Shown here: positions 8,901-31,811 of the stretch, piece after piece
Numbering within the stretch: position 1 is the stretch's first letter
How the letters are laid out: every line of letters starts with the position of its first letter
Assembly (NCBI RefSeq): GCF_004010195.1
Contig: NW_025214071.1
Coordinates: 1-38,838, forward strand
DNA: 38,838 nucleotides
Source: Chiloscyllium plagiosum
Taxonomy: Eukaryota
Direction: 5' to 3'
Notes under the pieces: generated by a model
The model's input: only the letters and a program-made list of their open reading frames with translations
Told to the model about the DNA's origin: nothing
The model's database searches: none
Made by a program: the position numbers and the translations under genes

Positions 8901-11900
8901 CACAGGCCTCAGTGTGCGGACACAGGCCTCACTGTGCGGGCACAGGCCTCACTGTCCGAGCACAGGCCTCACACTGTCTGAGCACAGGCCTCACTGTCCG
9001 CACACACACCTCACTATCCACGCGCAGGCCTCACTGTCCATGCGCGGGCCTCACTGTCCGGGCGCAGGCCTCACTGTCCGGGCGCGGGCCTCACTGTTTG
9101 GACACAGGCCTCAGTGTGCGGACACAGGCCTCACTGTGCGGGCACAGGCCTCACTGTCCGAGCACAGGCCTCACACTGTCTGAGCACAGGCCTCACTGTC
9201 CGCACACACACCTCACTATCCACGCGCAGGCCTCACTGTCCATGCGCGGGCCTCACTGTCCGGGCGCAGGCCTCACTGTCCGGGCGCGGGCCTCACTGTT
9301 TGGACACAGGCCTCAGTGTGCGGACACAGGCCTCACTGTGCGGGCACAGGCCTCACTGTCCGAGCACAGGCCTCACACTGTCTGAGCACAGGCCTCACTG
9401 TCCGCACACACACCTCACTATCCACGCGCAGGCCTCACTGTCCATGCGCGGGCCTCACTGTCCGGGCGCAGGCCTCACTGTCCGGGCGCGGGCCTCACTG
9501 TTTGGACACAGGCCTCAGTGTGCGGACACAGGCCTCACTGTGCGGGCACAGGCCTCACTGTCCGAGCACAGGCCTCACACTGTCTGAGCACAGGCCTCAC
9601 TGTCCGCACACACACCTCACTATCCACGCGCAGGCCTCACTGTCCATGCGCGGGCCTCACTGTCCGGGCGCAGGCCTCACTGTCCGGGCGCGGGCCTCAC
9701 TGTTTGGACACAGGCCTCAGTGTGCGGACACAGGCCTCACTGTGCGGGCACAGGCCTCACTGTCCGAGCACAGGCCTCACACTGTCTGAGCACAGGCCTC
9801 ACTGTCCGCACACACACCTCACTATCCACGCGCAGGCCTCACTGTCCATGCGCGGGCCTCACTGTCCGGGCGCAGGCCTCACTGTCCGGGCGCGGGCCTC
9901 ACTGTTTGGACACAGGCCTCAGTGTGCGGACACAGGCCTCACTGTGCGGGCACAGGCCTCACTGTCCGAGCACAGGCCTCACACTGTCTGAGCACAGGCC
10001 TCACTGTCCGCACACACACCTCACTATCCACGCGCAGGCCTCACTGTCCATGCGCGGGCCTCACTGTCCGGGCGCAGGCCTCACTGTCCGGGCGCGGGCC
10101 TCACTGTTTGGACACAGGCCTCAGTGTGCGGACACAGGCCTCACTGTGCGGGCACAGGCCTCACTGTCCGAGCACAGGCCTCACACTGTCTGAGCACAGG
10201 CCTCACTGTCCGCACACACACCTCACTATCCACGCGCAGGCCTCACTGTCCATGCGCGGGCCTCACTGTCCGGGCGCAGGCCTCACTGTCCGGGCGCGGG
10301 CCTCACTGTTTGGACACAGGCCTCAGTGTGCGGACACAGGCCTCACTGTGCGGGCACAGGCCTCACTGTCCGAGCACAGGCCTCACACTGTCTGAGCACA
10401 GGCCTCACTGTCCGCACACACACCTCACTATCCACGCGCAGGCCTCACTGTCCATGCGCGGGCCTCACTGTCCGGGCGCAGGCCTCACTGTCCGGGCGCG
10501 GGCCTCACTGTTTGGACACAGGCCTCAGTGTGCGGACACAGGCCTCACTGTGCGGGCACAGGCCTCACTGTCCGAGCACAGGCCTCACACTGTCTGAGCA
10601 CAGGCCTCACTTTCCGAGCACAGGCTTCGCTGGCTGAGCACAGGCCTCGCTGTCCGAGCACAGGCCTCGCTGTTTGGACACAGGCCTCACTGTCCGAGCA
10701 AAGGCCTCATTGTCCCAGCAGAGGCCTCGCTGTCTGAGCACAGGCCTCACTGTCCGAGTGCAGGTCTCACTGTCTGAGCACCAGTCTCGCTGTCCGAGCA
10801 CAGGCCCGCTGTCCGAGCACAGGCCTCACTGTCTGTGCACAGGCCTCACTGTCCGTGCACAGGCCTCACTGTCCGAGCACAGGCCTCACTGTCCGAGCAC
10901 AGGCTTCACTGTCCGAGCACAGGCCTCACTGTCCGAGCACAGGCTTCACTGTCCGAGCACAGGCTTCACCGTCCGAGCACAGGCCTCACCGTCCGTGCAC
11001 AGGCCTCACTGTCCTAGCACAGGCCTCACTGTCTGGGCACAGGCTTCACTGCCCGAGCACAGGCCTCACTGTCTGAGTACAGACCTTATTGTCTGAGCGC
11101 AGGACTCACTATACGAGCACAGGCCTCACTGTCCGAGCACAGGCCTCACTGTATTAGCGCAGGCCTCACTGTCTGAGCCCAGGCCTCACTGTCTGAGCGC
11201 AGGCCTCTCTATCCGGGCACTGGCAACACTGTCCAAGGTCAGGCCAAACTGTCCGAGCACAGGCCTCAGTGTCCGGGCACAGGCCTCAGTGTCCAAGCGC
11301 AGACAACACTGTCTGAGCGCAGGTCTCAATGTCCGAGCACAAGTCTCGCTGTCCAAGCACCGGTCTCGCTGACCGAGCACAGGCCTCAGTGTCTGAGCAC
11401 AGGCCTCACTGTCCGTGCATAGGCCTCACTGTCTGACCACAGGCCTCACTGTCCGAGCACAGGCCTCACTGTTTGGACACAGGTCTCACTTTCCGAGCAC
11501 AGGCTTCGCTGGCTGAGCACAGGCCTCGCTGTCCGAGCACAGGCCTCGCTGTTTGGACACAGGCCTCACTGTCCGAGCAAAGGCCTCATTGTCCCAGCAG
11601 AGGCCTCGCTGTCTGAGCACAGGCCTCACTGTCCGAGTGCAGGTCTCACTGTCTGTGCACAGGCCTCACTGTCCGTGCACGGGCCTCACTATCCGTGCAC
11701 GGGCCTCACTGTCCGTGCACGGGCCTCACTCTCCGGGCACGGTCTTCACTGTCCGAGCACCGGCCTCACTGTCCGAGCACCGGCCTCACTGTCCGAGCAC
11801 CGGCCTCACTGTCCGAGCACAGGCCTCACTGTCCGAGCACAGGCCTCACTGTCTGAGCACAGGCCTCACTGTCTGGACACAGGCCTCACTGTCCGAGCAC

Positions 11901-14900
11901 AGGCCTCACTATCCGAGCACAGGCCTCGCTGTCTGAGCACAGGCCTCGCTGTCCGAGCACAGGCCTCGCTGTCCGAGCACAGGCCTCGCTGTCCGAGCAC
12001 AGGCCTCACTGTCCGAGCACAGGCCTCACTGTCTGAGCACAGGCCTCACTGTTTGGACACAGGCCTCACTGTTTGGACACAGGCCTCACTGTCCGAGCAC
12101 AGGCCTCACTATCCGAGCACAGGCCTCGCTGTCTGAGCACAGGCCTCGCTGTCTGAGCACAGGCCTCGCTGTCCGAGCACAGGCCTCACTGTCCGAGTGC
12201 AGGTCTCACTGTTTGGACACAGGCCTCACTGTCCGAGTGCAGGTCTCACTGTTTGGACACAGGCCTCACTGTCCGGGCACGGGCCTCACGGTCTGAGCAC
12301 AGGCCTCACTCTCCGGGCACAGGCCTCACTGTCTGAGCACAGGCCTCTCTGTCTGGACACAGGCCTCACTGTCTGGACACAGGTCTCACTGTCCGAGCGC
12401 GGGCCTCACTGTCCGAGCGCGGGCCTCACTGTCCGAGCGCGGGCCTCACTGTCCGAGCACGGGCCTCACTGTCCGAGCACAGGCCTCACTGTCCGAGCAC
12501 AGGCCTCACTGTTTGGACACAGGCCTCACTGTCCGAGCACAGGCCTCGCTGTCCGAGCACAGGCCTCGCTGTCCGAGCACTGGCCTCACTGTTTGGACAC
12601 AGGCCTCGCTGTCTGAGCACAGGCCTCGCTGTCTGCACACAGGCCTCGCTGTCTGCACACAGGCCTCACTGTCCGAGCACAGGCCTCAGTGTCTGGACAC
12701 AGGCCTCACTGTCTGAGCACAGGCCTCGCTGTCTGAGCACAGGCCACACTGTTTGGACACAGGCCTCACTGTCCGAGCACAGGCCTAGCTGTCTGAGCAC
12801 AGGCCTCACTGTCTGGATACAGGCCTCACTGTTTGGATACAGGCCTCACTGTTTGGATACAGGCCTCACTGTCCGAGCACAGGCCTCACTGTTTGGACAC
12901 AGACCTCACTGTCCGAGCAGAGGCCTCACTGTCCGAGCACAGGCCTCGCTGTCTGAGCACAGGCCTCACTCTCTGCACACAGGCCTCACTGTCCGAGCGC
13001 AGGCCTCACTGTCCGAGCGCAGGCCTCACTGTCCGAGCACAGGCCTCACTGTCCGAGCGCAGGCCTCACTGTCCGAGCGCAGGCCTCACTGTCCGAGCGC
13101 AGGCCTCACTGTCCGAGCGCAGGCCTCACTGTCCGAGCGCAGGCCTCACTGTCCGAGCGCAGGCCTCACTGTCCGAGCGCAGGCCTCACTGTCCGAGCGC
13201 AGGCCTCACTGTCCGAGCGCAGGCCTCACTGTCCGAGCGCAGGCCTCACTGTCCGAGCGCAGGCCTCACTGTCCGAGCGCAGGCCTCACTGTCCGAGCGC
13301 AGGAGCACAGGCCTCGCTGTCCGAGCGCAGGCCTCACTGCACGAGCACAGGCCTCACTGTTTGGATACAGGCCTCACTGTCCGAGCACCGGCCTCACTGT
13401 CCGAGCACCGGTCTCGCTGTCCGTGCGCGGGCCTCACTGTCCGAGCACAGGCCTCGCTGTCTGAGCACAGGCCTCCCTGTCCGAGCACAGGCCACACTGT
13501 TTGGACACGGGCCTCACTGTCCGAGCACAGGCCTAGCTGTCTGAGCACAGGCCTCACTGTCTGGATACAGGCCTCACTGTTTGGATACAGGCCTCACTGT
13601 TTGGATACAGGCCTCACTGTCCGAGCACAGGCCTCACTGTTTGGACACAGACCTCACTGTCCGAGCAGAGGCCTCACTGTCCGAGCACAGGCTTTGCTGT
13701 CCGAGCACAGGCTTCGCTGTCTGAGCACAGGCCTCGCTGTCCGAGCGCAGGCCTCACTGTTTGGACACAGGCCTCACTGTCCGAGCACAGGCCTCGCTGT
13801 CTGAGCACAGGCCTCGCTGTCCGAGCACAGGCCTCGCTGTCCGAGCACAGGCCTCACTGTCCGGGCACAGGCCTCACTGTTTGGACACAGGCCTCACTGT
13901 CCGAGCACAGGCCTCGCTGTCTGAGCACAGGCCTCGTTGTCTGAGCACAGGCCTCACTCTCTGCACACAGGCCTCACTCTCTGCACACAGGCCTCACTGT
14001 CCGAGCGCAGGCCTCACTGTCCGAGCGCAGGCCTCACTGTCCGAGCACAGGCCTCACTGTCCGAGCACAGGCCTCAGTGTCTGGACACAGGCCTCACTGT
14101 CCGAGCACAGGCCTCGCTGTCCGAGCACAGGCCACACAGTTTGGACACAGGCCTCACTGTCCGAGCACAGGCCTAGCTGTCTGAGCACAGGCCTCACTGT
14201 CTGGATACAGGCCTCACTGTCTGGATACAGGCCTCACTGTCTGAGCAAAGGCCTCACTGTCCGAGCACAGGCCTCACTGTTTGGATACAGGCCTCACTGT
14301 CCGAGCACAGGCCTCACTGTCCGAGCAGAGGCCTCACTGTTTGGACACAGGCCTCACTGTCCGAGCAGAGGCCTCACTGTCCGAGCACAGGCTTCACTGT
14401 CCGAGCACAGGCTTCGCTGTCTGAGCACAGGCCTCGCTGTCCGAGCACCGGTCTCGCTGTCCGTGCGCGGGCCTCGCTGTCCGAGCACCGGCCTCGCTGT
14501 CCGAGCACCGGCCTCGCTGTCCGAGCACAGGCTTCGCTGTCTGAGCACAGGCCTCGCTGTCCGAGCGCAGGCCTCACTGCACGAGCACAGGCCTCACTGC
14601 ACGAGCACAGGCCTCACTGTTTGGATACAGGCCTCACTGTCCGAGCACCGGCCTCACTGTCCGAGCACCGGTCTCGCTGTCCGAGCACAGGCCTCGCTGT
14701 CCGAGCACAGGCCTCGCTGTCCGAGCACCGGCCTCGCTGTCCGAGCACCGGCCTCGCTGTCCGAGCACAGGCCTCGCTGTACGAGCACAGGCCTCGCTGT
14801 CCGAGCACAGGCCTCGCTGTCTGGACACAGGCCTCGCTGTCTGGACACAGGCCTCACTGCACGAGCACAGGCCTCACTGTCCGAGCACAGGCCTCGCTGT

Positions 14901-14965
14901 CCGAGCATAGGCCTCGCTGTCCGAGCACAGGCCTCGCTGTCCGAGCACAGGCCTCGCTGTCCGAG
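2949..14965. repeat. 12-kb tandem satellite, 20-bp monomer CACAGGCCTCACTGTCCGAG (roughly 600 monomers)
   Basis: 20-nt period throughout; begins about 26 nt after the exon B donor; generates the HRPHCPSTGLTVRAQASLSE ORFs. Confidence 0.98.
7575..10610. repeat. 202-bp higher-order repeat (nine 20-mers plus one 22-mer), about 15 apparently identical copies
   Basis: Marker CCTCACACTGTCTGAG recurs every 202 nt from 7755 to 10583; identical 157-aa ORFs start at 7902, 8104, ... 10124. Confidence 0.95.
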
Positions 14966-15829
14966 TTAAGGTTCCCTCTTTCCGTCTGATCCTTCTCTGC
15001 AGAGCAAATTGAAACGGGGATGCACGTTCCCTTGGCTCAACACTGCGACATTGCAGCCTTTGATATTTATACATTCCTGCAGTGTGTGAGTTTGTTTTGT
15101 TTTCATTGGGGCTGGGGGAGGAGTTACCAAGGCAACCAAATAAATATCACATTGCCATCAGGTTTCTAATAAAAGAATCTATTGACCAGGTTTTGAAATA
15201 AAATTGATTTCCTTACACTGATACCTTTCCAACACATTTATGTGACAAAACCGATTCCCCTTCCACGATCAGCAATATTTATTAGAACTATCACTGTATT
15301 TACTCTCCTCACTGCTTTGTATGGTCCACTCATCCTGACTTTCAGAGGCTCACCCTGACCAAGGTTACAATATTGACCCTTCATCTCGCAGTCTGATCAC
15401 TCTCACTGCTGAATGTCTATCTGCCCAGACTTTCATTGTCACCTGTCAGCTGTTTTTAACTCTCTCGTGCTATTTCACGTGCTGCTGTGAATCTCTCTAA
15501 AAACATAGACCCTTTGTCCCAATTGTTTGATTATTAATGACAATCATCTGTAACCATTGTTTTGAGAGTGTGTTGGGATCTGTCTAAAGTGATTGCTGAT
15601 TACATGCTCCTCATGTCTTTAGTTTTGTACCCAAGGTGCAGATTATAACCTGGAAACCATCAACACTCTACGCTTCCAGAGCTAACCTCAGCTTTACAGA
15701 TAGTCCTATCATAGTTCGTAACTGGGGTGGGAGGGGTCTCTGATGATGATGATGATGAGCAGCGAGAAATCTAAATGCAGTCAAATGATGGAAGGATGGT
15801 TTGTGTGATGGACTGGGTTGTGTTCACAA

Positions 15830-15959
15830 CTTCTCCCCACCCTAGAGGCTCCCTGCCTCCATTCCTGATGAAGGGCTTTTGTCTGAAACATTGATTTTTC
15901 TGCTCTTCGGATGCTGCCTGACCTGCTGTACTTTTCCAGCACCGCTCTAATCTAGACTC
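15830..15959 (+). mobile_element. Short Penelope-terminus-derived insert with degenerate hammerhead core
   Basis: Flanked by 11-bp direct repeat TGTGTTCACAA (15819-15829, 15960-15970); contains CTGATGA-AGGGC-TTTT-GTCT-GAAAC-ATT. Confidence 0.75.
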
Positions 15960-15988
15960 TGTGTTCACAATCTTCTTTAGTTTATTAT

Positions 15989-16265
15989 GGGTGGCACAGT
16001 GGTGAGCACTGCTGCCTCCCAGCGCCAGAGACCCGGCTTCAATTCCCACCTCAGGCGACTGACTGTGTGGAGTTTGCACATTCTCCCCGTGTCTGCGTGG
16101 GTTTCCTCCGGGTGCTCCGGTTTCCTCCCACATTCCAAAAATATGCAGGTTAGGTGAATTGGCCATAGTGTTAGGTGTAGGGGAATAGGTCTGGGTGGGT
16201 TGGGCGTCGGTGTGGACGTATTGGGCCGAAGGGCCTGTTTCCACACTGTAAGTAATCTACATCTA
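15989..16265 (+). mobile_element. HE1-type V-SINE, near full length
   Basis: tRNA-derived head (A box TGGCACAGTGG, B-box-like GCTTCAATTCC), V-domain GTGTGGAGTTTGCACATTCTCCCCGTGTCTGCGTGGGTTTCCTCCGGGTGCTCCGG, CR1/HER1-like tail GGGCCGAAGGGCCTGTTTCC. Confidence 0.9.
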
Positions 16266-16267
16266 GT

Positions 16268-17400
16268 CTTATGGCCCTGGGCAGAGCAGTTGCTGAACCA
16301 AGTAGTGATGAACCCAGATAGAATGCTTTCTACAGGCCATCTGTAAAGGTTGGTGAGGACATGCCGAATTTCCTAAGCCTCCTGAGGAAGTAGAGGTGGT
16401 GTTGTTGTGCCTTCTTGACCATCACATCCACGTAGGAGGACAAGGACAGATTATCGGTTATCATCACTCCGAGGAACTTGATGATCTCGACCCAGTCCAC
16501 CTCAGCTCCGTTCATGGAGATAGGGGCATGACCTCCTCCTTTCTTCCTGAAGTCAATGATCAGTCCTTTGGTTTTGCCGATATTGAGGGAGAGATTGTTA
16601 CCATTACACCACAATGCCTAGCATTCTATCTCCTTCTTGTATTCTGACTCATCACTGTCTGATACCCGGCTTACAACGGTGGGGTCATCAGCAAACCTGG
16701 AGATGGCATTCGGATGAAATTTGGCCAGAGTCGTGCATGCACTGGGAGTACAGTAGGGGGCTGCCTACACATCCTTGTGGGAGTTGAGTGTTATCGTGGA
16801 GGAGCTGCTGTTGTCTATCTTCACTGATTGCGGTCAGTGAGTCAGGAAGCTGCGGATCCAGTTGCAGAGCTGGGAGCTAGGTCTCGGAGTTTGGAGATCA
16901 CCTTTGGTTGGGATTAGCGTTGAAGGTGGAGCTGTAGTTGATGAGCAGTGGTTTGATGCAGATGTCCTTGTTGACCAGATGTGCCAGGGATGGCTGCAGG
17001 CCTAGGGAAATGGCGTCTGCAGAGGATGTTTTGTGATGGTAGTAAATTGTGGGGGATCGAGGCAGGCTGGGGGACTGGAGTTGATGTGGGCCATGACTAG
17101 CACTTTCTGATTACACAGGGCAGAGCCATTGGGCGGCAGTCATTAAGGCACATTACATAGGTACCGGGATGACAGTGGTCTCATAGCAAGGAGACGTTAA
17201 AGATGTCGGCAAATATTCCTACCAGCCTGTCTACACAGGCCAGTCACTTTCCTCCGGTTTACTCTCTAAAAGATCAATCTGACGCCTGCAGCAGTGACTG
17301 TGGGGACAGGTGTGTCTGGGTCTCTCTGGGAACGTGACACTGTTTCATTAACCTCTGTTCACACTGAGCGTAAAAAGCTTCAGCACATCAGGGAGGGGTG
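16268..17400 (-). mobile_element. Rex1/Babar-type LINE remnant (RT and C-terminal region); right boundary approximate
   Basis: ORF 16330..16614 WCNGNNLSLNIGKTK.LIIDFRK...KFLGV.ITDNL...KKAQQ.LYFLRRLRKFGMS; degenerate FADD (TTTGCTGATGAC on minus) near 16685-16696. Confidence 0.8.
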
Positions 17401-17599
17401 CATTTTTATCTGGTACTCTGTTCTGATTCACTTTGTAGCCTATTATGTCGCGTAGGCCTTGCTACAGACTCACTATTTTCTCAAATCACATGAAGGATGC
17501 CTTTATATCCTTTCCCTCCAATTCTGATAGGGCCTGTGTTTCCTGACTGGACTTTAGAATATGGATGCAGGTTTGCTCGCTGAGCTGGAAGGTTCATTT

Positions 17600-17639
17600 T
17601 CAGATGTTTCGTCACCATACTAGGTAATATCATCAATGA
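17600..17639 (-). ncRNA. Degenerate minimal type I hammerhead in left terminus of outer Penelope
   Basis: Minus strand TCA-TTGATGA-T-ATTACC-TAGTAT-GGTGAC-GAAAC-ATC-TGA; core C3 changed to T. Confidence 0.6.
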
Positions 17640-18440
17640 GCCTCCAAATGGAGCACTGGTGGTATGGCATGCTTTTTTACTTATGTGTTTAGGGTTCCTT
17701 GGGCTGGTGATGTCACTTCCTGTTCCTTTTCTCAGGGGGTGGTAGATGGGGTCTAACTCGATGTGTTTGTTGATAGAGTTCCAGTTGGAATGCCATGCTT
17801 GTAGGAATTCTCGTGCGTGTCCCTGTTTGGCTTGTCCTAGGATGGATGTGTTGTCCCAGTCGAAGTGGTGTCCTTCCTCATCCGTCTGTGAGGATACTAG
17901 TGAGAGAGGGTCATGTCTTTTTGTGACTAGTTGGTGTTCATGTATCCTGGTGGCTAGTTTTCTGCCTGTTGTCCAATGTAGTGTTTGTTACAGTCCTTGC
18001 ACAGTATTTTGTAAATGACATTAGTTTTGCTCATTGTCTGTACAGGGTCTTTTAAGTTCATTAGCTGCTGTTTTTGTGTGTTGGTTGGTTTGTGGGCTAC
18101 CATGATGCCAAGGGATCTGAGTAGTCTGGCAGTCATTTCAGAGATGTCTTTGATGTAGGGGAGAGTGGCTAGGGTTTCCGGACATGTTTTGTCTGCTTGT
18201 TTGGGTTTGTTGCTGAGAAATCGGCAGTCTGTGTTCAATGGATACCCATTCTTTTTGAATACACAGTATGGGTGATATTCCTCTGCTCTGTGGTGGAATG
18301 TGTGGTGGCTCATTAAAATAATGTTCTGATGCTTCTCCATTTGTAGATATGATTCGGAGATGCCTGTGTTGGACTGGGATGTACAAAGCTAAAAATCACA
18401 CAACACCAACAGGTTATAGTCCAACAGGTTTAATTGGAAG

Positions 18441-18475
18441 CACTAGCTTTCGGAGCACTGCTCCTTCATCAGGTG
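18441..18475 (-). ncRNA. Minimal type I hammerhead ribozyme motif, intact core
   Basis: Minus strand CAC-CTGATGA-A-GGAGC-AGT-GCTCC-GAA-AGCT-A-GTG: stem I CAC/GTG, 5-bp stem II, palindromic AGCT stem III, CUA triplet. Confidence 0.8.
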
Positions 18476-18708
18476 GTTGTGGAGGCCACAATTGTAAGGC
18501 ACAGAATTTATAGCAAAAGTTTACAGTGTGATGTAACTGAAATTATACATTGAAAAATACCTTGACTGTTTGTTGAGTCTTTCATCTGTTCGAATACCAT
18601 GATAGTTTCACTTCTTTCATGTGTAAATCACAAAACTGTTTTTTTTAAAAGTTACATTTTCAGGTTAACTGTAACATTTGGTGATAGCTAGACAATATGT
18701 TGAAGGTG

Positions 18709-18892
18709 GAGAAAGTGAGGACTGCAGATGCTGGAGATCAGAGCCTAAAAATGTGATGCTGGAAAAGCGCAGCAGATCAGGCAGCATCAAAGGAGAAGGA
18801 TTCCTGAAGAAGGGCTTATGCCCGAAACGTCGATTCTCCTGCTCCCTTGATGCTGCCTGACCTGCTGTGCTTTTCCAGCAACACATTTTTAA
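18709..18892 (+). mobile_element. 184-bp palindromic non-coding insert with hammerhead in the loop
   Basis: 15-bp TSD AATATGTTGAAGGTG (18694-18708, 18893-18907); arms at about 18747-18795 and 18842-18890 are inverted repeats. Confidence 0.85.
18799..18836 (+). ncRNA. Minimal type I hammerhead ribozyme motif, intact core
   Basis: GATTC-CTGAAGA-A-GGGC-TTAT-GCCC-GAA-ACGT-C-GATTC; CUGANGA at 18804-18810, GAAAC at 18824-18828, GUC triplet ending 18831; stem I imperfect. Confidence 0.75.
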
Positions 18893-19252
18893 AATATGTT
18901 GAAGGTGTTAGCCCCCTGTGTTCCCTGTCTGTCCCATAATGTTTAGACTGACTCTAATCTAAAACGTGAGATAACAGTCTTACTTATATTCATGCAATTT
19001 AACTCCGCAAGTACAAATTCACCCCACAAACGTATACGTGTGTGTGTGTGTGTGTGTGTGTGTCTGGGGTGGGGGTTGTGAGTGTCTGTGAGAGAGAGTG
19101 TATATGTGTGTGTGTGTGAGAGAGAGTGAAAAGGGTTCTAAGTCTGTGAGAGGGTGTGTGAGTGTGGGAGTGTGTATGTCTGTAAGGAGTTTGTGTCAAT
19201 GGGAGTGTCTGTGTATATGTGTGTGTGTGTTTGTGTGTAGGAGTGTCTGTGT

Positions 19253-19493
19253 CAGGCGACTGACTGTGTGGAGTTTGCACGTTCTCCCCGTGTCTGCGTG
19301 GGTTTCCTCCGGGTGCTCCGGTTTCCTCCCACAGTCCAAAGATGTGCAGGTCAGGTGAATTGGCCATGCTAAATTGCCTGTAGTGTTAGGTGAAGGGGTA
19401 AATGTAGGGGTATGGGTGGGTTGCACTTTGGAGGGTCGGTGTGGACTTGTTGGGCCGAAGGGCCTGTTTCCACACTGTAATGTAATCTAATCT
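19253..19493 (+). mobile_element. HE1-type V-SINE, 5'-truncated, inserted in a TG-rich tract of the inner Penelope
   Basis: V-domain and tail nearly identical to the 15989-16265 copy; (AATCT)n tail. Confidence 0.9.
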
Positions 19494-21455
19494 ATATGTG
19501 TGCCTGTGTGTGTGTGTGTATGTGTATAGTGCAATGGTGGTCACCTGTAATGTGACATGAACCCAAGGTCCCGGTTGAGGCCCTCCCTATGGGTACCGAA
19601 CTTAGCTATCAGTCTCTGCTCGGCCATTTTTCGCTGCTGCCTGTCCCGAAGTCCACCTTGGAGGATGGTCACCCGAAGGTCCGAGTCTGAATATCCTGAA
19701 CCACTGAAGTGTTCCCCAACTGGGAGGGAACCCTCCTGTCTGTTGATTGTTGTGCGGTGCCCATTCATGTTGTCGTAGCCTTTGTTCGGTTTCCCCAATG
19801 TACCATGCCTCCGGGCATCCTTGCCTGCAACGTCTAAGATAGACAACGTTGGCTGAGTCACATGAGTACCTGCCATGTACAAGGTGGGAGGTGTTCCCAC
19901 GCGTAATAGTGGTATCTATGTCCACAATCTGACACGTTTTGCAGCGTCCACCGTGACAGGGTTGTATGGAGTTGTCCTGAGAGCCGGGCAGTTTGCTACG
20001 AACAATGATCTGTTTGAGGTTTGGCGGTTGTTTAAAGGCAAGTAGTGGAGGTGTGGGGAAGGTCTTGGTGAGGTGCTCATCCTCATTGATAATGTGTTGC
20101 AGGTCACGAAGAACATGGCGTAATTTTTCAGCCCCTGGAAAGTACTGAACAACAAAGGGTACCCTGTCAGTTGCAGCATGTGTCTGTCTCCTGAGGAGGT
20201 CATTACGGTTCCTTGCTGTGGCACGTCGGAACTGGCGGTCGAGGAGTTGAGCATCGTACCCCGTTCTTATGAGGGCATCCTTGAGTATTTCCGGGTGCCT
20301 GTCACGTTCCTCCTCATCTGAACAGATCCGGTCCATGTGTAGGGCTTGTAGATGTTGGGATGATTGCTTCTGTAGTTCAGTATTTGGTCTGTATGTGTTG
20401 TTTTCCTGTAGACGCTGGTTTGAAGTTCCCCATTGGCTGTTTGCTCTATGGTGACATGTAGAGATGGCAGTTTGTTGTTGTCCTCCTCCTCTTTGGTGAA
20501 TGTGGTGCCAGTAAAAGGGTATTGTTGGTGGTCTTCAGGGTTTCATTTAATTTGTTTCATTTAGACATGACACAGGTGTCATCCACATGGCAGACCTGGA
20601 GTTTGGGTTGGGTGGTTGGCAGAGCTGTTTGTTCAAGCCTCTGCATTACTGCCTCTGCTAAGAGCCCTGAGGTCGGAGATCCCATGGGTGTTCCGTAGGT
20701 TTGTCTGAAGGTTTTGTTGTTGAAGGTGAAGTGGGTGGTAAGGCATAGGGCCACTAGCTTGATGATACTGTCCTTGCTGATGAAGTTGGTGGTGTTTGGT
20801 GTTTGTGTCTTTGGGTCTTCTAATAGTGTAGTCGGTGTTTCCTTGGCCAGATTGATGTTGATGGATATGAACAGGGTTGTTACATCAACGGAGACCATTA
20901 TTTCATCCTCTTCTATCTTGGTGTCTTTGATGGCCTTGAGGAATTCTTGCGGGGAGTGGATGGAGTGGCATGAGTCTTTGACTAAGTGTTTTAGTCTTTG
21001 ATGTATCACCAGTCTGTAAGTTGGTGTTCCAGGTAGCAAGACTATGGGTCTGAGAGGGGCTCCTGGTTTGTGAAAATTGGGTAATCTGTAGAAGCGTGAT
21101 GTGTTGGATCCGTCTGGTTTCATTTTTTGGAAATCAGTCTTATTTATTTCTCCAGATCTCTGAAGTGTTTTGAGTCGGGCTGTGATGTAGTTCTCTAGTT
21201 GTGGAGTTGGGTCTATTGCCACCTGTTGGTAAGTATAGGTATCCACAAAGAGTGTGTTCACTTTCTCACTGTAGTCTGTTTGTTTAAAATGACTGTCAAG
21301 CGTCCTTTGTCTGTAGGTAGGAGAACAATGTTTTTATCTTCTCTGTGAAAAATATCAGGAATTGACGTTACCAGAGGAAATGACATCATCAACCCAAGGA
21401 AACTCAAACATATAAATTGAAAGTGGACTACACCACCAGCGCTTCATCCGGATGC

Positions 21456-21495
21456 TCACTGAAGATGTTACCTAGTATGGTGACGAAACATCTGA
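21456..21495 (+). ncRNA. Minimal type I hammerhead in right terminus of outer Penelope
   Basis: TCA-CTGAAGA-T-GTTACC-TAGTAT-GGTGAC-GAAAC-ATC-TGA; stem I TCA/TGA, 6-bp stem II; stem III ACAT rather than palindromic ACGT. Confidence 0.7.
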
Positions 21496-22311
21496 AAATG
21501 AACCTTCTAGCTCGATGAGCAAACTCATATCCAGAACCTCAACCCGAGCTACAAATCTTCTCAAACCTCACTAACTTTAGAATATATCTTGAACTTTCTA
21601 CAGTTGAGCTCTATTAGGTTTCTGAAGTCTCACTTCTCTAACTGCATCATTCCAAACTTTCACCCTATTCTCTTCCCCTTTGCAATTCAACTCTTTTTAA
21701 AACTCTCTTTCTTCATATTTCTCTCCCATTTCTACCATCCTTATTCTTCCCTCATGATCAGCCTGTTTTATCTCTAACTCAATAGGAACTGATTTCGATA
21801 TCTCACTTGCTCATCTTTCGTGAATATCTATTTAACCCAAATGCTGTGTTACTCTTTCAGGTTTTTATCATCTTACCTGGCAAGCACCTCGGCTCCCAGT
21901 GTACTTCCCAATCCATCAATCCGGTTACTAGGATCTCTCCTTACTTTGCACAGAGGAAGGGTTTAGCAGTTCCTGATGTCACTTTATTTTTGACAGTACA
22001 ATAATTGGTGTTTTCCTTTCTCCTGTTGTCACTTACTAACTCCACACCCAATTGTACATTTCCTTTGTTTGAAAACTGTGCAGCCACGGCCCTCAAACTT
22101 AGTCACAACCCAGTGGGGTACTGTGTTGGAAATCAAACCCCACTATACCTAGAGTTGTCACAAATGTGAAAAATATTTAATGAAACCATCCAAAATTGGA
22201 GCAGATACGATGAGCTGTTTGGCCCACTTTACTCCAATGTTTTATGTCCAAAGTCCCCAGTATTCTTGACTGATGATTCAGATTAAAAGAAAATGGTCAA
22301 TAGGTTTTGGT

Positions 22312-22438
22312 GGGAGAAAATGAGGACTGCAGATGCTGGAGATCAGAGCTGAAAATGTGTTGCTGGAAAAGCGCAGCAGGTCAGGCAGCATCCAAGGAGC
22401 AGGAGAATCGACGTTTCGGGCATAAGCCCTTCCTCAGG
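22312..22438 (-). mobile_element. 127-bp hammerhead-containing insert, same family as 18709-18892
   Basis: 13-bp TSD AATAGGTTTTGGT (22299-22311, 22439-22451); minus strand CTGAGGA-A-GGGC-TTAT-GCCC-GAAACGTC-GATTC at 22437 to 22405. Confidence 0.85.
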
Positions 22439-22944
22439 AATAGGTTTTGGTACTTAACAAGAGAATTCTTAATAAATTTACCTTTGTCCAATGGCAGTCA
22501 GGAAATATGAATTTTTGAGGTATAGCTCTCTATTCTTAAAAATCTACCCATCTTCAATTCCCTCTTCACAAATAGACATATTAAGGCTAGTAAAAGCCAG
22601 AAGTGCAGGGAAACAGTTCCAAAGCACCGTTCTGAGCAGAGGAGCTGATACGCTGTTTTCTTTGGTTTCTTCATATCCCTTTGAGGTCTTTGACAATGTT
22701 TCGCACACCAATGGGCTCATTCATTCACTGGTTGGGAATTCACCTTTTCACTGTCTTTGAAAGAGTTTTATTCCTTCTTCAGTTTTATTCCTTCTTCAGT
22801 TGGGAATTTTCAGAAAAAGTGGCAGACAGCTAACTCGTGACATGTTGGTTGGGAGGTAGGTGTTGGCTGAATTGTTGTGCTGGGCCTACTAGACCAGGGG
22901 CCAGTCAAACTTTGTTGTTGAGCAGTTGTCCCTTAGTTTCGAGC

Positions 22945-23081
22945 TGAAAATGTGTTGCTGGAAAAGGGCTTATGCCCGAAACGTTGATTCTCCTGTTCCC
23001 TGGATGCTGCCTGACCTGCTGCGCTTTTCCAGCAACACATTTTCAGCTCTGATCTCCAGCATCTGCAGACCTCACTTTCTC
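22945..23081 (+). mobile_element. 137-bp insert of the same family with short inverted 5' arm; hammerhead lacks CUGANGA
   Basis: 15-bp TSD CCCTTAGTTTCGAGC (22930-22944, 23082-23096); retains GGGCTTATGCCCGAAACGTT. Confidence 0.85.
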
Positions 23082-23306
23082 CCCTTAGTTTCGAGCCCAT
23101 TGATTCTGTGGGGTCTGTTTCTGCTCTTACTGTTCCAGAAAAATTCAACATTTTCTACATTTCACTGTGTGCTCCAGGAAGCAACTTTTTGCACTTGGTT
23201 TAAAGCAGTAATTTCTCTGTTGAGTCCACTGTCTGAAAGTAAAAGCAGTCAGCTGGTGTGGTTTTTTTGGTAACTGACTCTAACCTCCTGCCCTCTCCCC
23301 CGACAG

Positions 23307-23402
23307 GTGGATGAGCTCATGAGAGAAGAGTTGAGGAATTTGAGAATGGCAGTTGAGCGGGACTTCAGTGACCCTCCTAAAGCCAAGGTCAAACCCAAAA
23401 AG
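23307..23402 (+). CDS. IQCA1: IQCA1-like exon C (VDELMREELRNLRMAVERDFSDPPKAKVKPKK)
   Basis: ccctctcccccgacAG acceptor, AAG|GTACAT donor; 96 nt, phase 0/0; matches recalled VDELMRQELKNLKLAVDR. Confidence 0.92.
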
Positions 23403-23457
23403 GTACATTCTGAGCAGTGTCCAGATCTTTGTCAGTTATCCCAGTCAGCTCTGATTC

Positions 23458-23880
23458 TGACCCAGTGACAGTGAAGGAACAGCGATATATTTCCAAGTCA
23501 GGATGGGGAGTGTCCAGGTGAGGAACCTGCAGGGGGTGGTGTTCCCATGTATCTGCTGCCCTTGTCCTTCTAGATGGAAGTGGTCATGGGTTTGGATCTT
23601 TGGTGAATTCCTGCAGTGTACCTTGTAGCTGGTACACACTGCTGTTACTGAGTGTTGGTGGGGGGGTTGGGAAGGTGATGCTTGTGGATCTGGTGCCAAT
23701 CAAGCGGCTGCTTTGTCCTGGATGGGGTCAGGCTTCTTGATGGGGGTTGGAGCTGCCCCCATCCAGGGAAGTGGGGAGGATTCCCTCACACTCCTGCCTT
23801 GTAGATGATGGACAGGCTTTGGGAGTCAGGAGGTGAGTTACTGACTGCAGTATTCCTACCTTCTGACCTTCTGCCACTGT
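23458..23880 (-). mobile_element. CR1-clade LINE 3' fragment
   Basis: Colinear with 25165-25600. Confidence 0.75.
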
Positions 23881-24115
23881 TTAGATCACATGGAATGAAT
23901 TGAATTGGTGGTGTGGTGGGGAGGGGTCTGTATCATAGAGCAGATCTCTGCTCCCACGTCACACTCGCCAACCCCACCCAGCCCCAAACCCCCAGGACCA
24001 GCCAAGGGGAAGTTGGTTTGTTCCCATTCACCATGAGCACCTCTGTGTTGTCAGGCACAGGTTCCTGATACAGTCAGAGTGAACGTTGACACAGGGCTGT
24101 GTTGTTTCTCTTTAG

Positions 24116-24171
24116 GCCAAAGGTAAAGAGAAAGGATCGAAGAAGAAGGAGAAAGACTTTACAGCCAACAG
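24116..24171 (+). CDS. IQCA1: IQCA1-like exon D (AKGKEKGSKKKEKDFTAN-R)
   Basis: tttctctttAG acceptor, CAG|GTAAAA donor; phase 0/2; matches recalled KKDKDLTADR. Confidence 0.88.
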
Positions 24172-24489
24172 GTAAAAAACGTCAAAGGCCATCCCACCAT
24201 CTGCAGCAGTCCACTCTGATCCTGGGGATTTAGTGTGATTGCTCTCTCCCGACTCCATTCCCAAGAGGATCACGGTTCACAGTCACAGACCCTGGCTCCC
24301 CTGGCATCAGGACCTCAGGACTGACGCTCCATGCTGTGGGTCTGGAGTCACATGTAGACCCAGATTGGGGATGGATAGGAGGAGATGAGTGAACCAATTG
24401 GCAGTAGTTTCCTGGTCACTATCAGAGGAGCTCTGTCCACTCCAGATTTTGTTTGAAATCAAATGTCTCCATCTGCCTCTGTGGGATTT

Positions 24490-24985
24490 GTGGGGTTAGC
24501 ACTGCTGCCGCACGGCGCCCAATTCCAGCCTCGGGCGGCTGTCCGTGTGGAGTTTGCACATTCTCCCCATGTCTGCGTGGGTTTCCTCCAGGTGCTCTGG
24601 GTTCCTAAAATGTGCAGGTTAGGTGGATTAGCCGTGGGAAATGTGGGATTACAGGGTTAGGGTGAGGGTCGATTAGCCGTGGGAAATGTGGGATTACAGG
24701 GTTAGGGTGAGGGTCGATTAGCCGTGGGAAATGGGGGATTATAGGGTTAGGGTGAGGGTCGATTAGCCGTGGGAAATGGGGGATTACAGGGTTAGGGTGA
24801 GGGTCGATTAGCCTTGGGAAATGGGGGATTACAGGGTTAGGGTGAGGGTCGATTAGCCGTGGGAAATGGGAGATTACTGGGTTAGGGTGAGGGTGGATTA
24901 GCCGTGGGAAATGTGGGATTACAGGTCTAGGGGGAGGGTCAGAGTGGAATGTCCTTGAGAGGGTCATTGCAGAGTCGATGGGCCA
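24490..24985 (+). mobile_element. Diverged HE1-type V-SINE with internal tandem expansion
   Basis: Head remnant TTAGCACTGCTGCC, V-domain at about 24545-24600, tail remnant GATGGGCC. Confidence 0.8.
24626..24925. repeat. 45-bp G-rich minisatellite, about 6.6 copies
   Basis: Unit GATTAGCCGTGGGAAATG(T/G)GGGATTACAGGGTTAGGGTGAGGGTC starts at 24626, 24671, 24716, 24761, 24806, 24851, 24896. Confidence 0.95.
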
Positions 24986-24989
24986 AGCT

Positions 24990-27060
24990 TTTTATTTATT
25001 TATTCATTTTGTGGGACACGGGGGGGGGGGTCACTGACTGGGCCCAGTATTTACTGCCCGTCCCTTGTTGCCCCTTGAGAAGGTGGGGGTGAGCTGCCTT
25101 CTTGAACTGCTGCAGTCCATGTGCTATAGGTAGACCCACAATGTCCTTAGGGAGGGAATTCCAGCACCCAGTGACAGTGAAGGCAGAGCAATTATAATTC
25201 CAAGTCGGGATGGTGAGGGGCTCGGAGGGGAAGTTGAAGGGGATGCTGTTCCCATGTACCTGCTGTCCTTGTCCTTCTCGATGGAAGTGGTCGTGGGTTT
25301 GGAAGGTGCTGTCTGAGGATCTTTGGTGAATTCCTGCAGTGTATCTTGTAGATAGTACACACTGCTGCTACTGAGCGCTGGTGATGGAGGGAGTGGGTGT
25401 TTGTGGACGTGGTACCAATCAAGTGGGTTGCTTTATCCAGGATGGTGTCAGGTTTCTTGAGCGTTGTTGGAGCTGCACTCATCCAGGCAAGTGGGGAGTA
25501 TTCCATCACCCTTTTGACTTGTGCCTTGTAGATGGTGGACAGGCTTTGGGTGTCAGGAGGTGAGTTACTCGCTGCAGGATTCCTAGCCTCTGACCTGCTC
25601 TTGTAGCTGCTGTGTTCATATGGTGAGTCCAAGTGAATTTCTGGTCAACAGTATCCCCCAGGCTGTTGATAGTGGGGGATTCAGTGATACTAACACCATT
25701 CAATGTGAAGGGGTGATAGTTAGATTGTCTCTTATTGGTGATGGCCATTGTCTGGCAGTTGTGTGTGGTGACTGTTACTTGTCACGTGTCAGCCCAAGCC
25801 TGGATATTGTCCAGATCTTGCTGCATATGAACACGGACTGCTTCAGTGTCTGAGGAATTGTGAATGGTGCTGAATCATCGGCGAACATCCCACTTCTGAC
25901 CTTATGACAGAGGGAAGGTGATTGATGAAGCAGCTGAAGATGGTTGGGCCTGGGACACTCCCCTGAGGGACTCCTGCAGAGATGTCCTGGGGCTGAGATG
26001 ATTAACTCTCCACAATCACAACTATCTTCCTTTGTGCCAGATATGACTCTAACCTGCAGAGTGTTTGTCCCGTGATACCCATTAATTCCAGTTTTGCTAG
26101 GACTCCTTGATACCATACCTGGTCAAATGCGACCTTGATGTCAAGGGCTGTCACTCTCATTTCACCTCTAGTATTCAGCTGTTTTGTCCATGTTTAAACC
26201 AAGGCTGTACTGAGATCAGGAGCTGAGTGACCTCTGGTGAAACCCAAACTGGATGTCACTGAGCAGGGTGTTGCTGAGCGGGTGCTGCTTGATAGCGCTG
26301 TTGATGACCCTTCCATCACGTTACTGATGATGGAGAGGAGACTGGGCAGTAATTGGCCAGGTTGGATTTGTCCTGCTTTTTGTGTACAGGACATACCTGG
26401 GAAATTTCCCACATTGTCGGGTAGTTGCCAGTGTTGTAACTGTACTGAAACAGCTTGACTAGGGGAGCAGCAAGTTCTGAAGCACACGTCTTCAGTACTA
26501 TTGCGGGAATGTTATCAGGCCCTATTGCTTTTGCAGTGCCTCCAGCCATTCCTTGACATCACATGGAGTGAATCGAATTGTCTGGAGACTGTATCTGTGA
26601 TGCGGGGGACCACTGGAGGAGCCCGAGATGGATCATCCACTTGGCATTTCTGACTGAAGGTTACTGCAAATATTTCAGCCTTATCTTTTGCACTGATGTG
26701 CTGGGCTCCTCCATCATTGAGGATGGGGATATTTGTAGAGTCTTCTCCTCCATTGAGTTGTTGAATTATCCACCACCATTCACAACTGGGTGTGGAAGGA
26801 CTGCAGAGCTTAGATCTGATCCTTTGGTTGTGGGATCGTTTAGCTCTGTCTATCTCTTGCTGTTTATGCCGTTTGGCAAGTAGTCCTATTTGGTGTCTTC
26901 ACCAGGTTGACATCTCATTTTTAGATATGCCTGGTGCTGCTCTTGGCATGCCCTTCTGCACTCTCCATTGAACCAGGGTTGATCCCCTGACTTGATGGTA
27001 ATGGTTGAATGGGGGATGTGCTGGGCCATGAGGTTACAGATTGTGCTGCTGTTGATGAAC
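24990..27060 (-). mobile_element. CR1-clade LINE, about 2 kb decayed copy with internal deletions
   Basis: Minus ORF pieces DQPWFNGECRRA, KAIGPDNIPAIVLKTCASELAAPLVKLFQ, VCPVHKK, GMFADD, RAGQRLGILQRV, YKAQVKRVMEYSPLAW. Confidence 0.9.
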
Positions 27061-27089
27061 CTGATGGCTGTTTTTGACAATCGACAAAC

Positions 27090-27237
27090 TTTTCACAATC
27101 ATCAGTTAATTCCAGATGTTTTTTATTGAATTCAAATTCCACCATTTATTGTGGCAGGATTCAAACCCAGGTCCCCAGAACATTCCCTGGATCGATAGAC
27201 TAATAGTCCAGCAATGATACATACCACTGGGCCATTG
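27090..27237 (-). mobile_element. tRNA-derived SINE head fragment
   Basis: Minus strand A-box-like TGGCCCAGTGG and B-box-like GGTTTGAATCC. Confidence 0.55.
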
Positions 27238-27479
27238 TCTTCTTCTGCACTGCAGGGGTGCTAAACATCACTTGACAGGTGGACTTTGTTTGGTCGATGT
27301 GTTGCCATGGAGAATGCACCAGTTAGTCATGACTTACAGTTAACTAACAACCTTTGATTTAATTTTACGGCAGATTGACTCTGATTGGTCAAATCATAGC
27401 TCTAAGAGTTGACCCAGAGAACCACTCTCAGCGATGTTGGTGAGTGGTGACAGAGCAATGCAGATGCACGTTCTTTCTA

Positions 27480-27930
27480 CCTGCATGGAACAGACCCTGT
27501 CAGTTAGTATCTGTCACCACTCTGTGGGCAGGACTGACAATCCGAACATCAATGTCAGCGTCAGTCTTTACACCTTCAAGGTTATTCAGTAAATGCTGTC
27601 CAATGACAGAATGCGATCGAACATTGGGACACTGTGTTGTGTGCTTTGTAAACACCAGCAGGTTGGGTAAAGACAGGAGGGACATAGATTTGAGGTGATC
27701 AGCCAGTCTTTGGGATCAGCAGCTGAATCACACTGGATCGGAAACTCATTGTAAGCGTGACCTGTTTGTGTCCTTGCCTGACAGCAGCCTCCTGTGCCAG
27801 GGGAACATTATAATTGCACAGAACAACTCGCTTAACCTGCTGCTTAAACCTGTCAGAGATCTGACCCTGTCTGGGAGTATGCTGGGGAAAACAGCACACA
27901 GTTTAGAGTAAAACGTGAACTCTAAAAAGT
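27480..27930 (-). mobile_element. Old Penelope-like GIY-YIG region remnant
   Basis: Fragmentary minus-strand peptides SQRLADHLK and SVIGQHLLNN resemble Penelope endonuclease motifs. Confidence 0.5.
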
Positions 27931-27936
27931 GAGCGC

Positions 27937-28070
27937 GCACTGTCGGAGGGTCAGTGCTGAGGGAGTGGGCACTGTCGGAGGGTCAGTGCTGAGGGAGTGG
28001 GCACTGTCGGAGAGTCAGTGCTGAGGGAGTGGGCACTGTCAGAGGGTCAGTGCTGAGGGAGTGGGCACTG
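27937..28070. repeat. 32-bp minisatellite GCACTGTCGGAGGGTCAGTGCTGAGGGAGTGG, just over 4 copies
   Basis: Units start at 27937, 27969, 28001, 28033, 28065. Confidence 0.95.
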
Positions 28071-28173
28071 TACCTAATGGGTGAGATGGTTTTAAAAATC
28101 CCGGTGCTGAGATTCTCGAGAGCTCCTTCCCTACTGTACTGGAGGATGTGACAGTGTTCCCTTTGTGTTTCAG

Positions 28174-28256
28174 GAGTTTGAACTCTCTGTGCGATGAGTT
28201 GATTGAACAGGGATTGTTGAAGGCAGCCCCACAGGTTCCTCTGGCCAGTTATTTAG
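28174..28256 (+). CDS. IQCA1: IQCA1-like exon E (R-SLNSLCDELIEQGLLKAAPQVPLASYL-G)
   Basis: ctttgtgtttcAG acceptor, TAG|GTGAGT donor; phase 2/1; matches recalled TIESLYKELVEEGLL...LSDYIG. Confidence 0.92.
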
Positions 28257-28399
28257 GTGAGTATCTGACTCTGGGTCCTCGTCATTGACCGACATTCCCT
28301 CCTGTCCAACCCCATTGTCCTTCTCAGCTTCAACCTAAACCCTTTCCCTTTCACCCTTGATCTTCAGCCACAAAGATCAAACACTAACTGATATTAGGG

Positions 28400-29640
28400 G
28401 ATGTTTGTGATTGGGTCCAGCATTTACTGCCCGTTCCTAGTTGCCCCTTGAGAAGGTGGGGGTGAGCTGCCTGTTCGAATCACTGTGTCTATGTGCTGTG
28501 GGTTGACCCACAACTCCTGAGGGAGGAAGTTCAGGATTTTGACCCAGCAACACTGAAGGACTGACGATATATTGCCCAGCCTGGAGGGTTTGATTTATAA
28601 GGAGAGGCAGGATGGCTGGGACTTTTTCCTTGGAGCGTCGGAGGCTGAGGGGTGACCTTATAGTGGTTTATAAAATTACAGGGGGGGGGCATGGAGAGGG
28701 TAAATAGACAAGGTTTTTTTACTCAAAACTGGAGGGAATAGATTAAAAGTGAGAGGGAAAAGATTTAAAAGGAACTTAAGTTGCAACCTTTTTACCCAGG
28801 AGGGTGGTTCATACGTGGAATGAGCTGCCAGAGGAGGTTATCGGTGCAGATACCGTATCAACATTTAAAAGACATGGGAACAGGAACATGAACAGAAAAG
28901 GTTTAGAGGGAAATGGGCCAAACACAGGGAAGCCTGGTCAGCATGGGCAGGTTGGACCGAAGGGTCTGTTTCCGTGCTGCATGACCCGAGGATCCGAGAC
29001 TCTATTTCCACTCAGGAACCTGGAGGGGATGGTGTTCCCATGTATCTGCTGCCCTTGTCCTTCTGGATGGAAGTGGTCGTGGGTTTGGAAGGTGCTGTCT
29101 GAGGGTCTTTGGGTGAATTTCTGCAAGGCCTCTTGTAGATGGTAAACACTGCTGCTACTGAGCACCGGGGGTGGAGGGAGGGGTTGTTTGTGGGTGTGGT
29201 GCCAATCAAGCAGGAGCTGCTTTGTCCTGGATGGGGTCAACTTCTGGAGCTGCCCCCATCCAGGCAAGTGGGGAGTAATCCCTCACACTCCTGAGTTGCA
29301 CCTTGTAGATGAGTCAGGAGGTGAGTTACTCACTGCAGGATTCCCAGCCTCTGACCTGCTGTTGTGACCTCTGTGTTGAAATCACGTGGAGTGAATCGAA
29401 TTAGCTGACGGCTGGTAGCTGTGATTCTGGGGACCACTGCAGGAGGCTGAGGTGGACCTTTCACTCGGCACTTCTGGCTGAAGATTACTGTGAAAGTTTC
29501 AGCCTTATCTTTCACACTGATGTGCTGGGCTCTCCCATTACTCAGGATGGGGATACTTGTGGAGCCTCCATACATACATAACTGGGTGGGGTAGGACTGC
29601 AGAGCTCAGATCTGATCCGTTGGCTGTGGGATCATTTACC
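28400..29640 (-). mobile_element. Fragmented CR1-clade LINE (same family as 24990-27060), interrupted by a + strand CR1 tail
   Basis: Blocks colinear with 25040-25600 and 26560-26840. Confidence 0.75.
28571..28990 (+). mobile_element. CR1/HER1-like LINE 3' end
   Basis: RRLRGDL and WNELPEEV motifs; homologous to 32170-32620. Confidence 0.85.
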
Positions 29641-29729
29641 AGCCTGTGCTGTTTCACTGAATTCTCCTGCCCTGACTCTTCCTCCAGCCCATTCTCACCC
29701 TCTTCGCTGACCACCGCCTGACTTACTGA

Positions 29730-29861
<132 letters not shown>

Positions 29862-30079
29862 TGATTGGATTACACCTTCACCCAGCTCACACCCTCTGGG
29901 CAACTCCAGACCAGAGGGAACAGCTAAAAGGACAGAGATAACCCACTCAGAGTCTCTCTCACACAACAACAGCCATAGCCTCCATGTTTCCAAAGTGTGT
30001 CTTGGTGTAAACCTGTCACACTGTCCTCACCTCACCCTGGCATCAGCTGTGGGCAACAGGCTATAGAAGGGTCAACCTG

Positions 30080-30341
30080 AGGTGAGAGGTCAGTGCTGAA
30101 GGGTCAGGTCTGGGTGAGAGGTCAGTACTGGAAGGTCATGTCTGAGGGTTAGTGTTGACCAATTAGCCCTGAGACATGGGTCAGTGCCAAGGGGTCAGGG
30201 TCAGTGCCGAGGGGTTAGAGGTCAGTGTTGAGGGCGTGGGGGGGGTCAGTGCCGAGGGGGTCGGGGTCAGTGCCGAGGGGTTAGAGGTCAGTGCCAAAGG
30301 GTTGGGGTCAGTGCCGAGAGGGTGGGGTCAGTGCTGAGGGT
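30080..30341. repeat. Degenerate G-rich minisatellite built on GGTCAGTGC(C/T)GAGGG (about 21-bp spacing)
   Basis: Recurrent GGTCAGTG core with G-run spacers. Confidence 0.75.
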
Positions 30342-30459
30342 AGATAACAAGGGGACAAGTTCCAAATGCTCAGGACAAGAGAAAACGCTCTTTCCTTCCC
30401 CTTGAGATATTGTTGACCATCTTGGATTCTCCCTGCCCTTACCTGCTGGCTGAAACCCT

Positions 30460-31790: not shown

Positions 31791-31811
31791 TATGATGCTG
31801 TTCCTCTAGAA

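Follow-up and report, generated by a model that had tools for sequence, protein, structure and literature searches.

Insertions of Penelope-like elements (PLEs) are typically truncated at the 5′ end, form partial tandems, carry an adjacent inverted copy and bear a 30–40-bp tail at one end (PMC8557442; PMC3846280), and the origin of the inverted and tandem structures and of the one-sided tail has been stated to be unresolved (PMC8557442). In vitro, the Poseidon element PAc of Anolis carolinensis starts reverse transcription at two internal sites that delimit its tail, with both strands cleaved and extended; its hammerhead lies ~100–130 nt upstream of these starts, and insertion is independent of hammerhead cleavage (PMC11167929). 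Thousands of minimal hammerhead ribozymes (min-HHRs), most of them single, have also been described as ‘probably related to truncated PLEs’ and as inactive as monomers (PMC4209133). We analysed four short, non-coding, hammerhead-carrying inserts (i1 to i4) in a 38,838-nt stretch of the shark Chiloscyllium plagiosum (contig NW_025214071.1, forward strand; hereafter the window). The inserts are probably truncated, dead-on-arrival 3′ ends of an extremely abundant endonuclease-bearing (EN+) PLE in the shark lineage, each consisting of a pseudo-long terminal repeat (pLTR) and a minimal hammerhead, with or without a tail.

Target-site duplications and arm ends of the inserts

All four inserts lie where the first-pass annotation had placed them (Table 1), and the direct repeats it listed around i1, i2, i3 and i4 are exact and distinct, at 11, 15, 13 and 15 bp. 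At matched offsets a chance repeat of ≥11 bp occurred in 0.34% of 20,000 random position pairs, per insert; tandem arrays and the inserts themselves lie within the region sampled, so that the figure is an upper bound. Target-site duplications (TSDs), a mark of EN+ PLEs, are present at 4/4 inserts, at 11–15 bp. The inner 3 letters of the i3 copy at 22439–22451 also match the element, a case of 5′ microhomology, as do the last 4 letters of the left copy of i4.

Positions in the repeated unit are numbered from unit 1 = window 22441, running along the minus strand. Arm identities are 0.85–0.97 among i2, i3 and i4, and 0.72–0.81 against i1. Searched with a profile, the masked window yielded the six arms of the inserts and a single weak, old relative of the unit’s 3′ part at 38587–38699 (+; nhmmer E 0.0011), around which no direct repeat of ≥6 bp was found.

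The first-pass annotation had also described one body shared by all inserts and one terminus shared by three. The inserts are not uniform, however: i2 and i4 each consist of two arms set head to head inside one TSD pair, with a junction overlap of 1 nt (i2) or 3 nt (i4). The terminus is indeed common to i2, i3 and i4, and i1 lacks it because its 3′ end lies ~34 nt earlier, at a second, tail-less site. The 3′ ends of 6/6 arms fall at one of these two sites (unit 92–96 or 126–129), and both compound inserts pair one tail-bearing with one tail-less arm. The 5′ ends differ, lying at unit −31, 1, 1–4, 11, 38 and 71. A fixed 3′ end with an optional 30–40-bp tail, as in EN+ PLEs, is seen in all six arms, and again in the loose-end piles and depth step of the public contigs described below; an inverted 5′-truncated copy with partial tandems, likewise a feature of these elements, is seen in i2, in i4 and in contig joints of the family.

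How two arms came to lie within one TSD pair is constrained most by i2. Its tail-bearing arm lacks unit 1–37 and the arm that has unit 1–37 lacks the tail, so that i2 cannot derive from the fold-back of one cDNA, a route that is possible for i4 and was rejected as impossible for i2. In L1 twin priming, an inverted 5′ part lies under a single TSD pair with microhomology at the junction, and the arms copy different parts of the RNA. In the inserts, by contrast, the two arms are copies of one and the same stretch, each with its outer end at a 3′ start site; i2 does not fit L1-type twin priming because its arms overlap. Lying beyond both routes, i2 favours priming from both target ends. The i2 arms differ at 6/56 positions yet have family-rare variants in common (one at ~8% of depth), which suggests that both came from one source subfamily.

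The architecture of i2 and i4 recurs, with the coding body retained, in a decayed coding PLE of a different family situated between the inserts: its 3′ end is tail-less, and an inverted 5′ arm (~21375–21573) carries a ~41-nt tail. Solo pLTRs, of which a rotifer offers examples (PMC3846280), could arise when the repeats of formerly full-length insertions recombine, and would yield TSD-flanked stubs like i1 and i3. Recombination would nevertheless leave unexplained the head-to-head arms of i2 and i4, with both outer ends at reverse-transcription start sites, and would require an implausible number of full-length precursors; we regard it as extremely unlikely.

Table 1 Coordinates in the window of the inserts, their target-site duplications and the coding elements between them
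Feature	Coordinates	Strand	Remarks
i1, left TSD copy, 11 bp	15819..15829	.	Right copy 15960–15970
i1, older-subfamily stub with 31 nt ahead of the hammerhead edge, 3′ end at the tail-less site	15830..15959	+	Decayed min-HHR, core start 15865
Decayed coding PLE of a different family, reverse transcriptase (RT) and GIY-YIG-like frames	17563..21573	-	One 12-bp TSD (17551/21574)
Second coding PLE fragment, third family, nested in the first, approximate bounds	18351..20345	-	Full min-HHR at 18472
i2, left TSD copy, 15 bp	18694..18708	.	Right copy 18893–18907
i2, inverted arm covering unit ~128–38, tail terminus on the outside	18709..18800	-	Without hammerhead
i2, forward arm covering unit 1–~92, tail-less site on the outside	18800..18892	+	Full min-HHR, core start 18804
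i3, TSD copy on the 3′ side, 13 bp	22299..22311	.	Other copy 22439–22451
i3, simple stub, hammerhead edge (from unit 1–4) to tail terminus	22312..22438	-	Full min-HHR
i3, min-HHR core	22437–22410	-	Tail ~22313–22347; predicted cut 22410/22409
i4, left TSD copy, 15 bp	22930..22944	.	Right copy 23082–23096
i4, inverted arm covering unit ~92–71, tail-less site on the outside	22945..22966	-	3-nt overlap with forward arm
i4, forward arm covering unit 11–~128, tail terminus on the outside	22964..23081	+	Hammerhead without CUGANGA

The hammerhead and a possible retrozyme origin

A hammerhead core had been claimed for three inserts and a truncated one for the fourth. The full minimal-hammerhead descriptor matches i2 and i3 only; i4 is truncated as claimed, without the CUGANGA box, and i1 matches a relaxed descriptor, failing the 15.2–16.2 pair. 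As in an EN+ PLE, the minimal hammerhead lies near the 3′ end. Its core begins at unit 5, with a predicted cut between unit 32 and 33; helix II has 4 bp, and helix I has 2 bp in i1 to i3. Within 15001–33600 the full descriptor has three matches (i2, i3 and one of another family), and 300/300 shuffled controls gave 0 matches. An Rfam scan, suggested in the first-pass annotation, gave no hammerhead match at E ≤ 1. The only Rfam matches, two sub-threshold miRNA ones on the i2 hairpin, were dismissed as resulting from the inversion.

Among the public sequence runs described below, core CpG positions are variable in 6–19% of depth, as would be expected of neutral decay. A variant at unit 35 (window 22407) that completes a 4-bp helix I makes up 16% of depth in organism C, 1.4% in A and 0.2% in B; the dominant subfamily of A and B spread with a weaker helix I. 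By eye, a branch-point-like motif, a pyrimidine tract and an AG can be seen in the conserved body at 22384–22363 (−; unit 58–79). PLE pLTRs can contain a 5′-UTR intron (PMC8557442).

One of the two origins offered at first pass was a retrozyme-like family. Tandem 129-nt units of a non-LTR retrozyme would self-cleave as hammerhead dimers and circularise, and the circles would be retrotransposed. Vertebrate retrozymes are pLTR-derived, occur as solo monomers and have been reported in one chondrichthyan (bioRxiv 10.64898/2026.07.22.740005), which would suit the inserts. However, the hammerhead here is minimal, its 2-bp helix I standing against the 6-bp helix I and loop–loop contacts of the canonical type I; no tandem array of units is present in the window; and folding of the unit reveals no more structure than in its shuffles (z −0.4 to −1.1). 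Cofolding of two cores produced no hammerhead dimer, a result that carries no weight either way. We rejected the idea that hammerhead cleavage produced the 5′ ends in the window, because no arm begins at unit 33. One contig joint, 22409/22441, does coincide with the cut site (4 and 7 contigs); it is ambiguous because of 2-nt homology with the upstream consensus.

The family in public contigs and the search for a coding parent

Four of 24 listed public sequence runs, two DNA runs (organisms A and B), one run of organism C and one raw RNA run, were aligned to i3 and its flanks at 85% likeness. No RNA data set was listed as carrying the family, and 0 reads of the raw RNA run (X22) matched, a blank that does not bear on expression; another run, X15, may likewise be RNA. 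Matching contigs number ~99,000 in each DNA run and ~22,000 in organism C. Summed word depth is 1e7–3e7 over the unit against ~10–30 on the flanks; this is not a copy number, and it points, as an order of magnitude only, to a family size of 10^5 or more. In 1190, 1320 and 267 contigs (A, B and C) the fixed terminus adjoins unrelated AT-rich flanks. Further loose-end piles, in part subfamily variants, lie at 22352 and 22356 near the tail-less site, and, relative to the body, depth in the tail bins is ~1/3 in each DNA run and 0.70 in organism C, edge effects contributing. Organism B also contains the orthologous i3 flanks joined to the element, and i3 is therefore older than the A/B split.

Loose ends upstream of the hammerhead were found in 982, 956 and 229 contigs, and their consensus begins alike in the three organisms. 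Upstream element sequence in common spans ~19–30 nt in the three runs and 31 nt in i1, and many 5′ ends cluster at unit 1–11. The truncation gradient into a full-length parent, put forward at first pass as a sign that the inserts are no new system, has been followed in part, to this shared extension, with no link found to an open reading frame (ORF) for RT or GIY-YIG.

The joints examined are the 15 listed of 90. Eleven of these 15 are head-to-head inversions at different breakpoints, two being essentially the i2 junction, and joints at 22432–22441 are also present in contigs. Joints lead back to the terminus from 22345, 22346, 22390, 22400, 22402, 22423, 22436 and 22441, the last of which is an exact head-to-tail junction with a 129-nt period and the best supported of all (16, 16 and 2 contigs). 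This joint speaks for a retrozyme. Yet it is present in those few contigs among all that match the family, tandem junctions occur at many other points, and the sequence beyond unit 1 is mostly not tail (982 contigs versus 16 in DNA run X1). With few exact tandems, no array in the window, a minimal hammerhead and no pile of 5′ ends at the cut site among the window arms, the retrozyme-like family is not supported, and we consider such an origin very unlikely.

Copies with long flanks were absent from viral contigs (0), from prokaryote genomes (0) and, with a 32-mer query, from metagenomes (0). A 19-mer returned 119 metagenome loci, which were rejected as chance matches because the best 8 BLAST matches span just 23–34 nt around the seed.

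The window had been said to contain no coding parent. This stands for the inserts’ own family, for which no ORF start inside the pLTR was found; two other coding PLE families nonetheless lie between the inserts, with i2 inside one of them. Protein searches with the 3′-open 40-aa frame of the unit left 0/3 candidates standing. Those with the 5′-open frame left 2/6, both isoforms of one C. plagiosum gene, and a further match is a 96-aa hypothetical protein of C. punctatum. Blanks in these searches are weak because only longer proteins or cluster representatives were covered. As a lead only, the inserts’ terminus may be one that ends GIY-YIG-bearing elements in bamboo-shark assemblies.

The C. 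plagiosum proteins concerned are two predicted FUBP3-like isoforms (P0028/P0029). The C-terminus of the gene model is a translation of the unit (28/32 residues) from the hammerhead core to the tail-less site, with an identical five residues on both sides. These repeated residues are likely a 15-bp TSD, seen at the peptide level only, and the stub-derived C-terminus may be a gene-model artefact or an exonisation.

Of the two in-window coding PLEs, the larger has an RT frame that matches PF00078 at E 6e-6, which falls short of the Pfam cut-off, and a GIY-YIG-like frame recognised by eye. Insert i2 lies in the 3′ non-coding part of the nested element. Among named proteins, those nearest to this element are shark RT proteins; an 8-bp exact direct repeat stands at 18341/20346. 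From the absence and presence, respectively, of a Cys linker (PMC8557442), the two would be Poseidon-type and Neptune-type. A 71-bp Poseidon-type 3′-end piece at 36288–36358 (−) has the tail and no hammerhead, and no exact flanking repeat of ≥7 bp was found around it. Within the nested PLE lies a SINE-like (short interspersed nuclear element-like) repeat at 19252–19494, also found at 16051–16265. Its presumed label is HE1. Elsewhere in the window, 2940–14965 is a 12-kb array of ~600 copies of a 20-bp unit with 84% matches.

Proposed mechanism and relation to known systems

The second origin offered at first pass, very short Penelope reverse-transcription products, fits the optional tail, the inverted 5′ arm under one TSD pair and the partial tandems. 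It also fits the variable 5′ ends and the sequence that continues upstream of the hammerhead in other copies. In the mechanism we propose, an autonomous copy elsewhere would provide the RNA and the RT/GIY-YIG protein. Both target strands would be cut 11–15 nt apart, giving rise to the observed TSDs, and reverse transcription would begin at one of the two fixed sites ~34 nt apart at which all six arms end. The cDNA would end after 20–130 nt, the lengths seen, and in many cases at the hammerhead’s upstream edge, where either the template RNA would have its 5′ end or RT would stall. In some events both target ends would be primed, each at a different start site, and microhomology of 1–3 nt would link the resulting pair of cDNAs head to head, producing the structures seen in i2 and i4. 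Once inserted, the solo minimal hammerhead would be unable to fold as an active monomer, judging from published assays, and would decay, as its CpG positions indicate.

Several points weigh against truncated copies of a coding PLE. No RT/GIY-YIG ORF linked to the family emerged from the protein or contig searches. No empty-site allele is present among the contig joints listed for organisms A, B and C, and the TSDs therefore lack confirmation from pre-insertion sequence. Contig counts favour unique junctions and are incomplete for DNA run X1. Agreement on the upstream consensus over 30 letters is only 0.33–0.36, and in the DNA runs it fades to A-rich sequence after ~19 nt, so that most copies with long unique flanks end near the hammerhead. 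Finally, 3/4 of the window inserts and the database copy start within unit 1–11, a boundary sharper than random truncation predicts.

The main interest that is left lies in these many 5′ ends at the upstream edge of the hammerhead, and not at its cut site. Tentatively, the ~95/130-nt class might be a discrete run-off product of an RNA with its 5′ end at that edge, started internally at the two tail sites and often made from both target ends, with one arm for each start site, the template being either the parent mRNA or a self-propagating pLTR-only RNA. Were this so, the shark stubs, at least ~10^5 of them, would document in vivo how the inverted-repeat-plus-one-tail structure of PLEs comes about, and might form a SINE-like lineage that has overtaken its parent.

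A fully SINE-like derivative would be non-autonomous: a ~95–130-nt pLTR-only RNA, transcribed from master copies of its own with a promoter inside the pLTR and a start at the hammerhead edge, would be mobilised in trans by PLE protein. The clustering of 5′ ends at unit 1–11 and the very high copy number, with a parent not found in the searches, agree with this; PLE pLTRs contain both a promoter and a start of transcription, and non-autonomous derivatives of Chlamys are known (PMC8557442). However, other 5′ ends lie at −31, 38 and 71, the upstream continuation is common to three organisms, and the in-window coding PLE forms the same arm-plus-tail structure. A pLTR-started autonomous transcript, moreover, would yield short products of this kind too, through internal initiation (PMC11167929). 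We consider a derivative of this kind unlikely, and return to the truncated 3′ ends of an EN+ PLE for comparison.

Our literature search, with most subscription journals outside its coverage, found no description of this shark family. Penelope has been listed in the whale shark without detail (PMC8455134), and PMC6155905 offers general background only. The covered portions of the text and supplement of PMC4209133 do not mention sharks. The metazoan PLE min-HHRs described there resemble those of the inserts in having a type I core, a single unpaired base ahead of helix II, a G10.1–C11.1 pair and a palindromic 15.2–16.2 without loop 3, and in being mostly solo. Helix II of the inserts has 4 bp, and helix I its 2 bp plus a U–U mismatch, compared with 7–8 and 4–5 bp in the Schistosoma mansoni motifs (PMC4209133).

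Non-LTR retrozymes, like the inserts, are non-coding and pLTR-related, carry a type I hammerhead, have TSDs of >4 bp and can occur as solo monomers (PMC7229834; bioRxiv 10.64898/2026.07.22.740005). They are defined, however, by tandem hammerhead units and circular RNA and are mostly canonical, whereas the inserts are solo or inverted and minimal, with variable 5′ ends. In annotation, the stubs can be mistaken for retrozymes or for miRNA hairpins, and they can enter gene models.

The closest resemblance is to EN+ PLE insertion units (Penelope/Poseidon and Neptune), which have the same fixed 3′ end, optional ~34-nt tail borne on one arm, inverted arm in one TSD pair, partial tandems, strong 5′ truncation and hammerhead near the 3′ end. 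The inserts differ in being shrunk to 95–185 bp, in being far more numerous and in belonging to a family known here without its ORF; their TSDs, at 11–15 bp, exceed the 8–10 bp of rotifer PLE examples (PMC3846280). As a class they are ordinary, since solo minimal hammerheads of truncated PLEs, tails and inverted arms have already been published. Their value is as material, in the form of very many short, readable, TSD-bounded insertions with countable arm ends. Like PAc, finally, they have a hammerhead ~100–130 nt upstream of two adjacent start sites that bound a tail, the start sites being seen in vitro for PAc and in sequence for the inserts.

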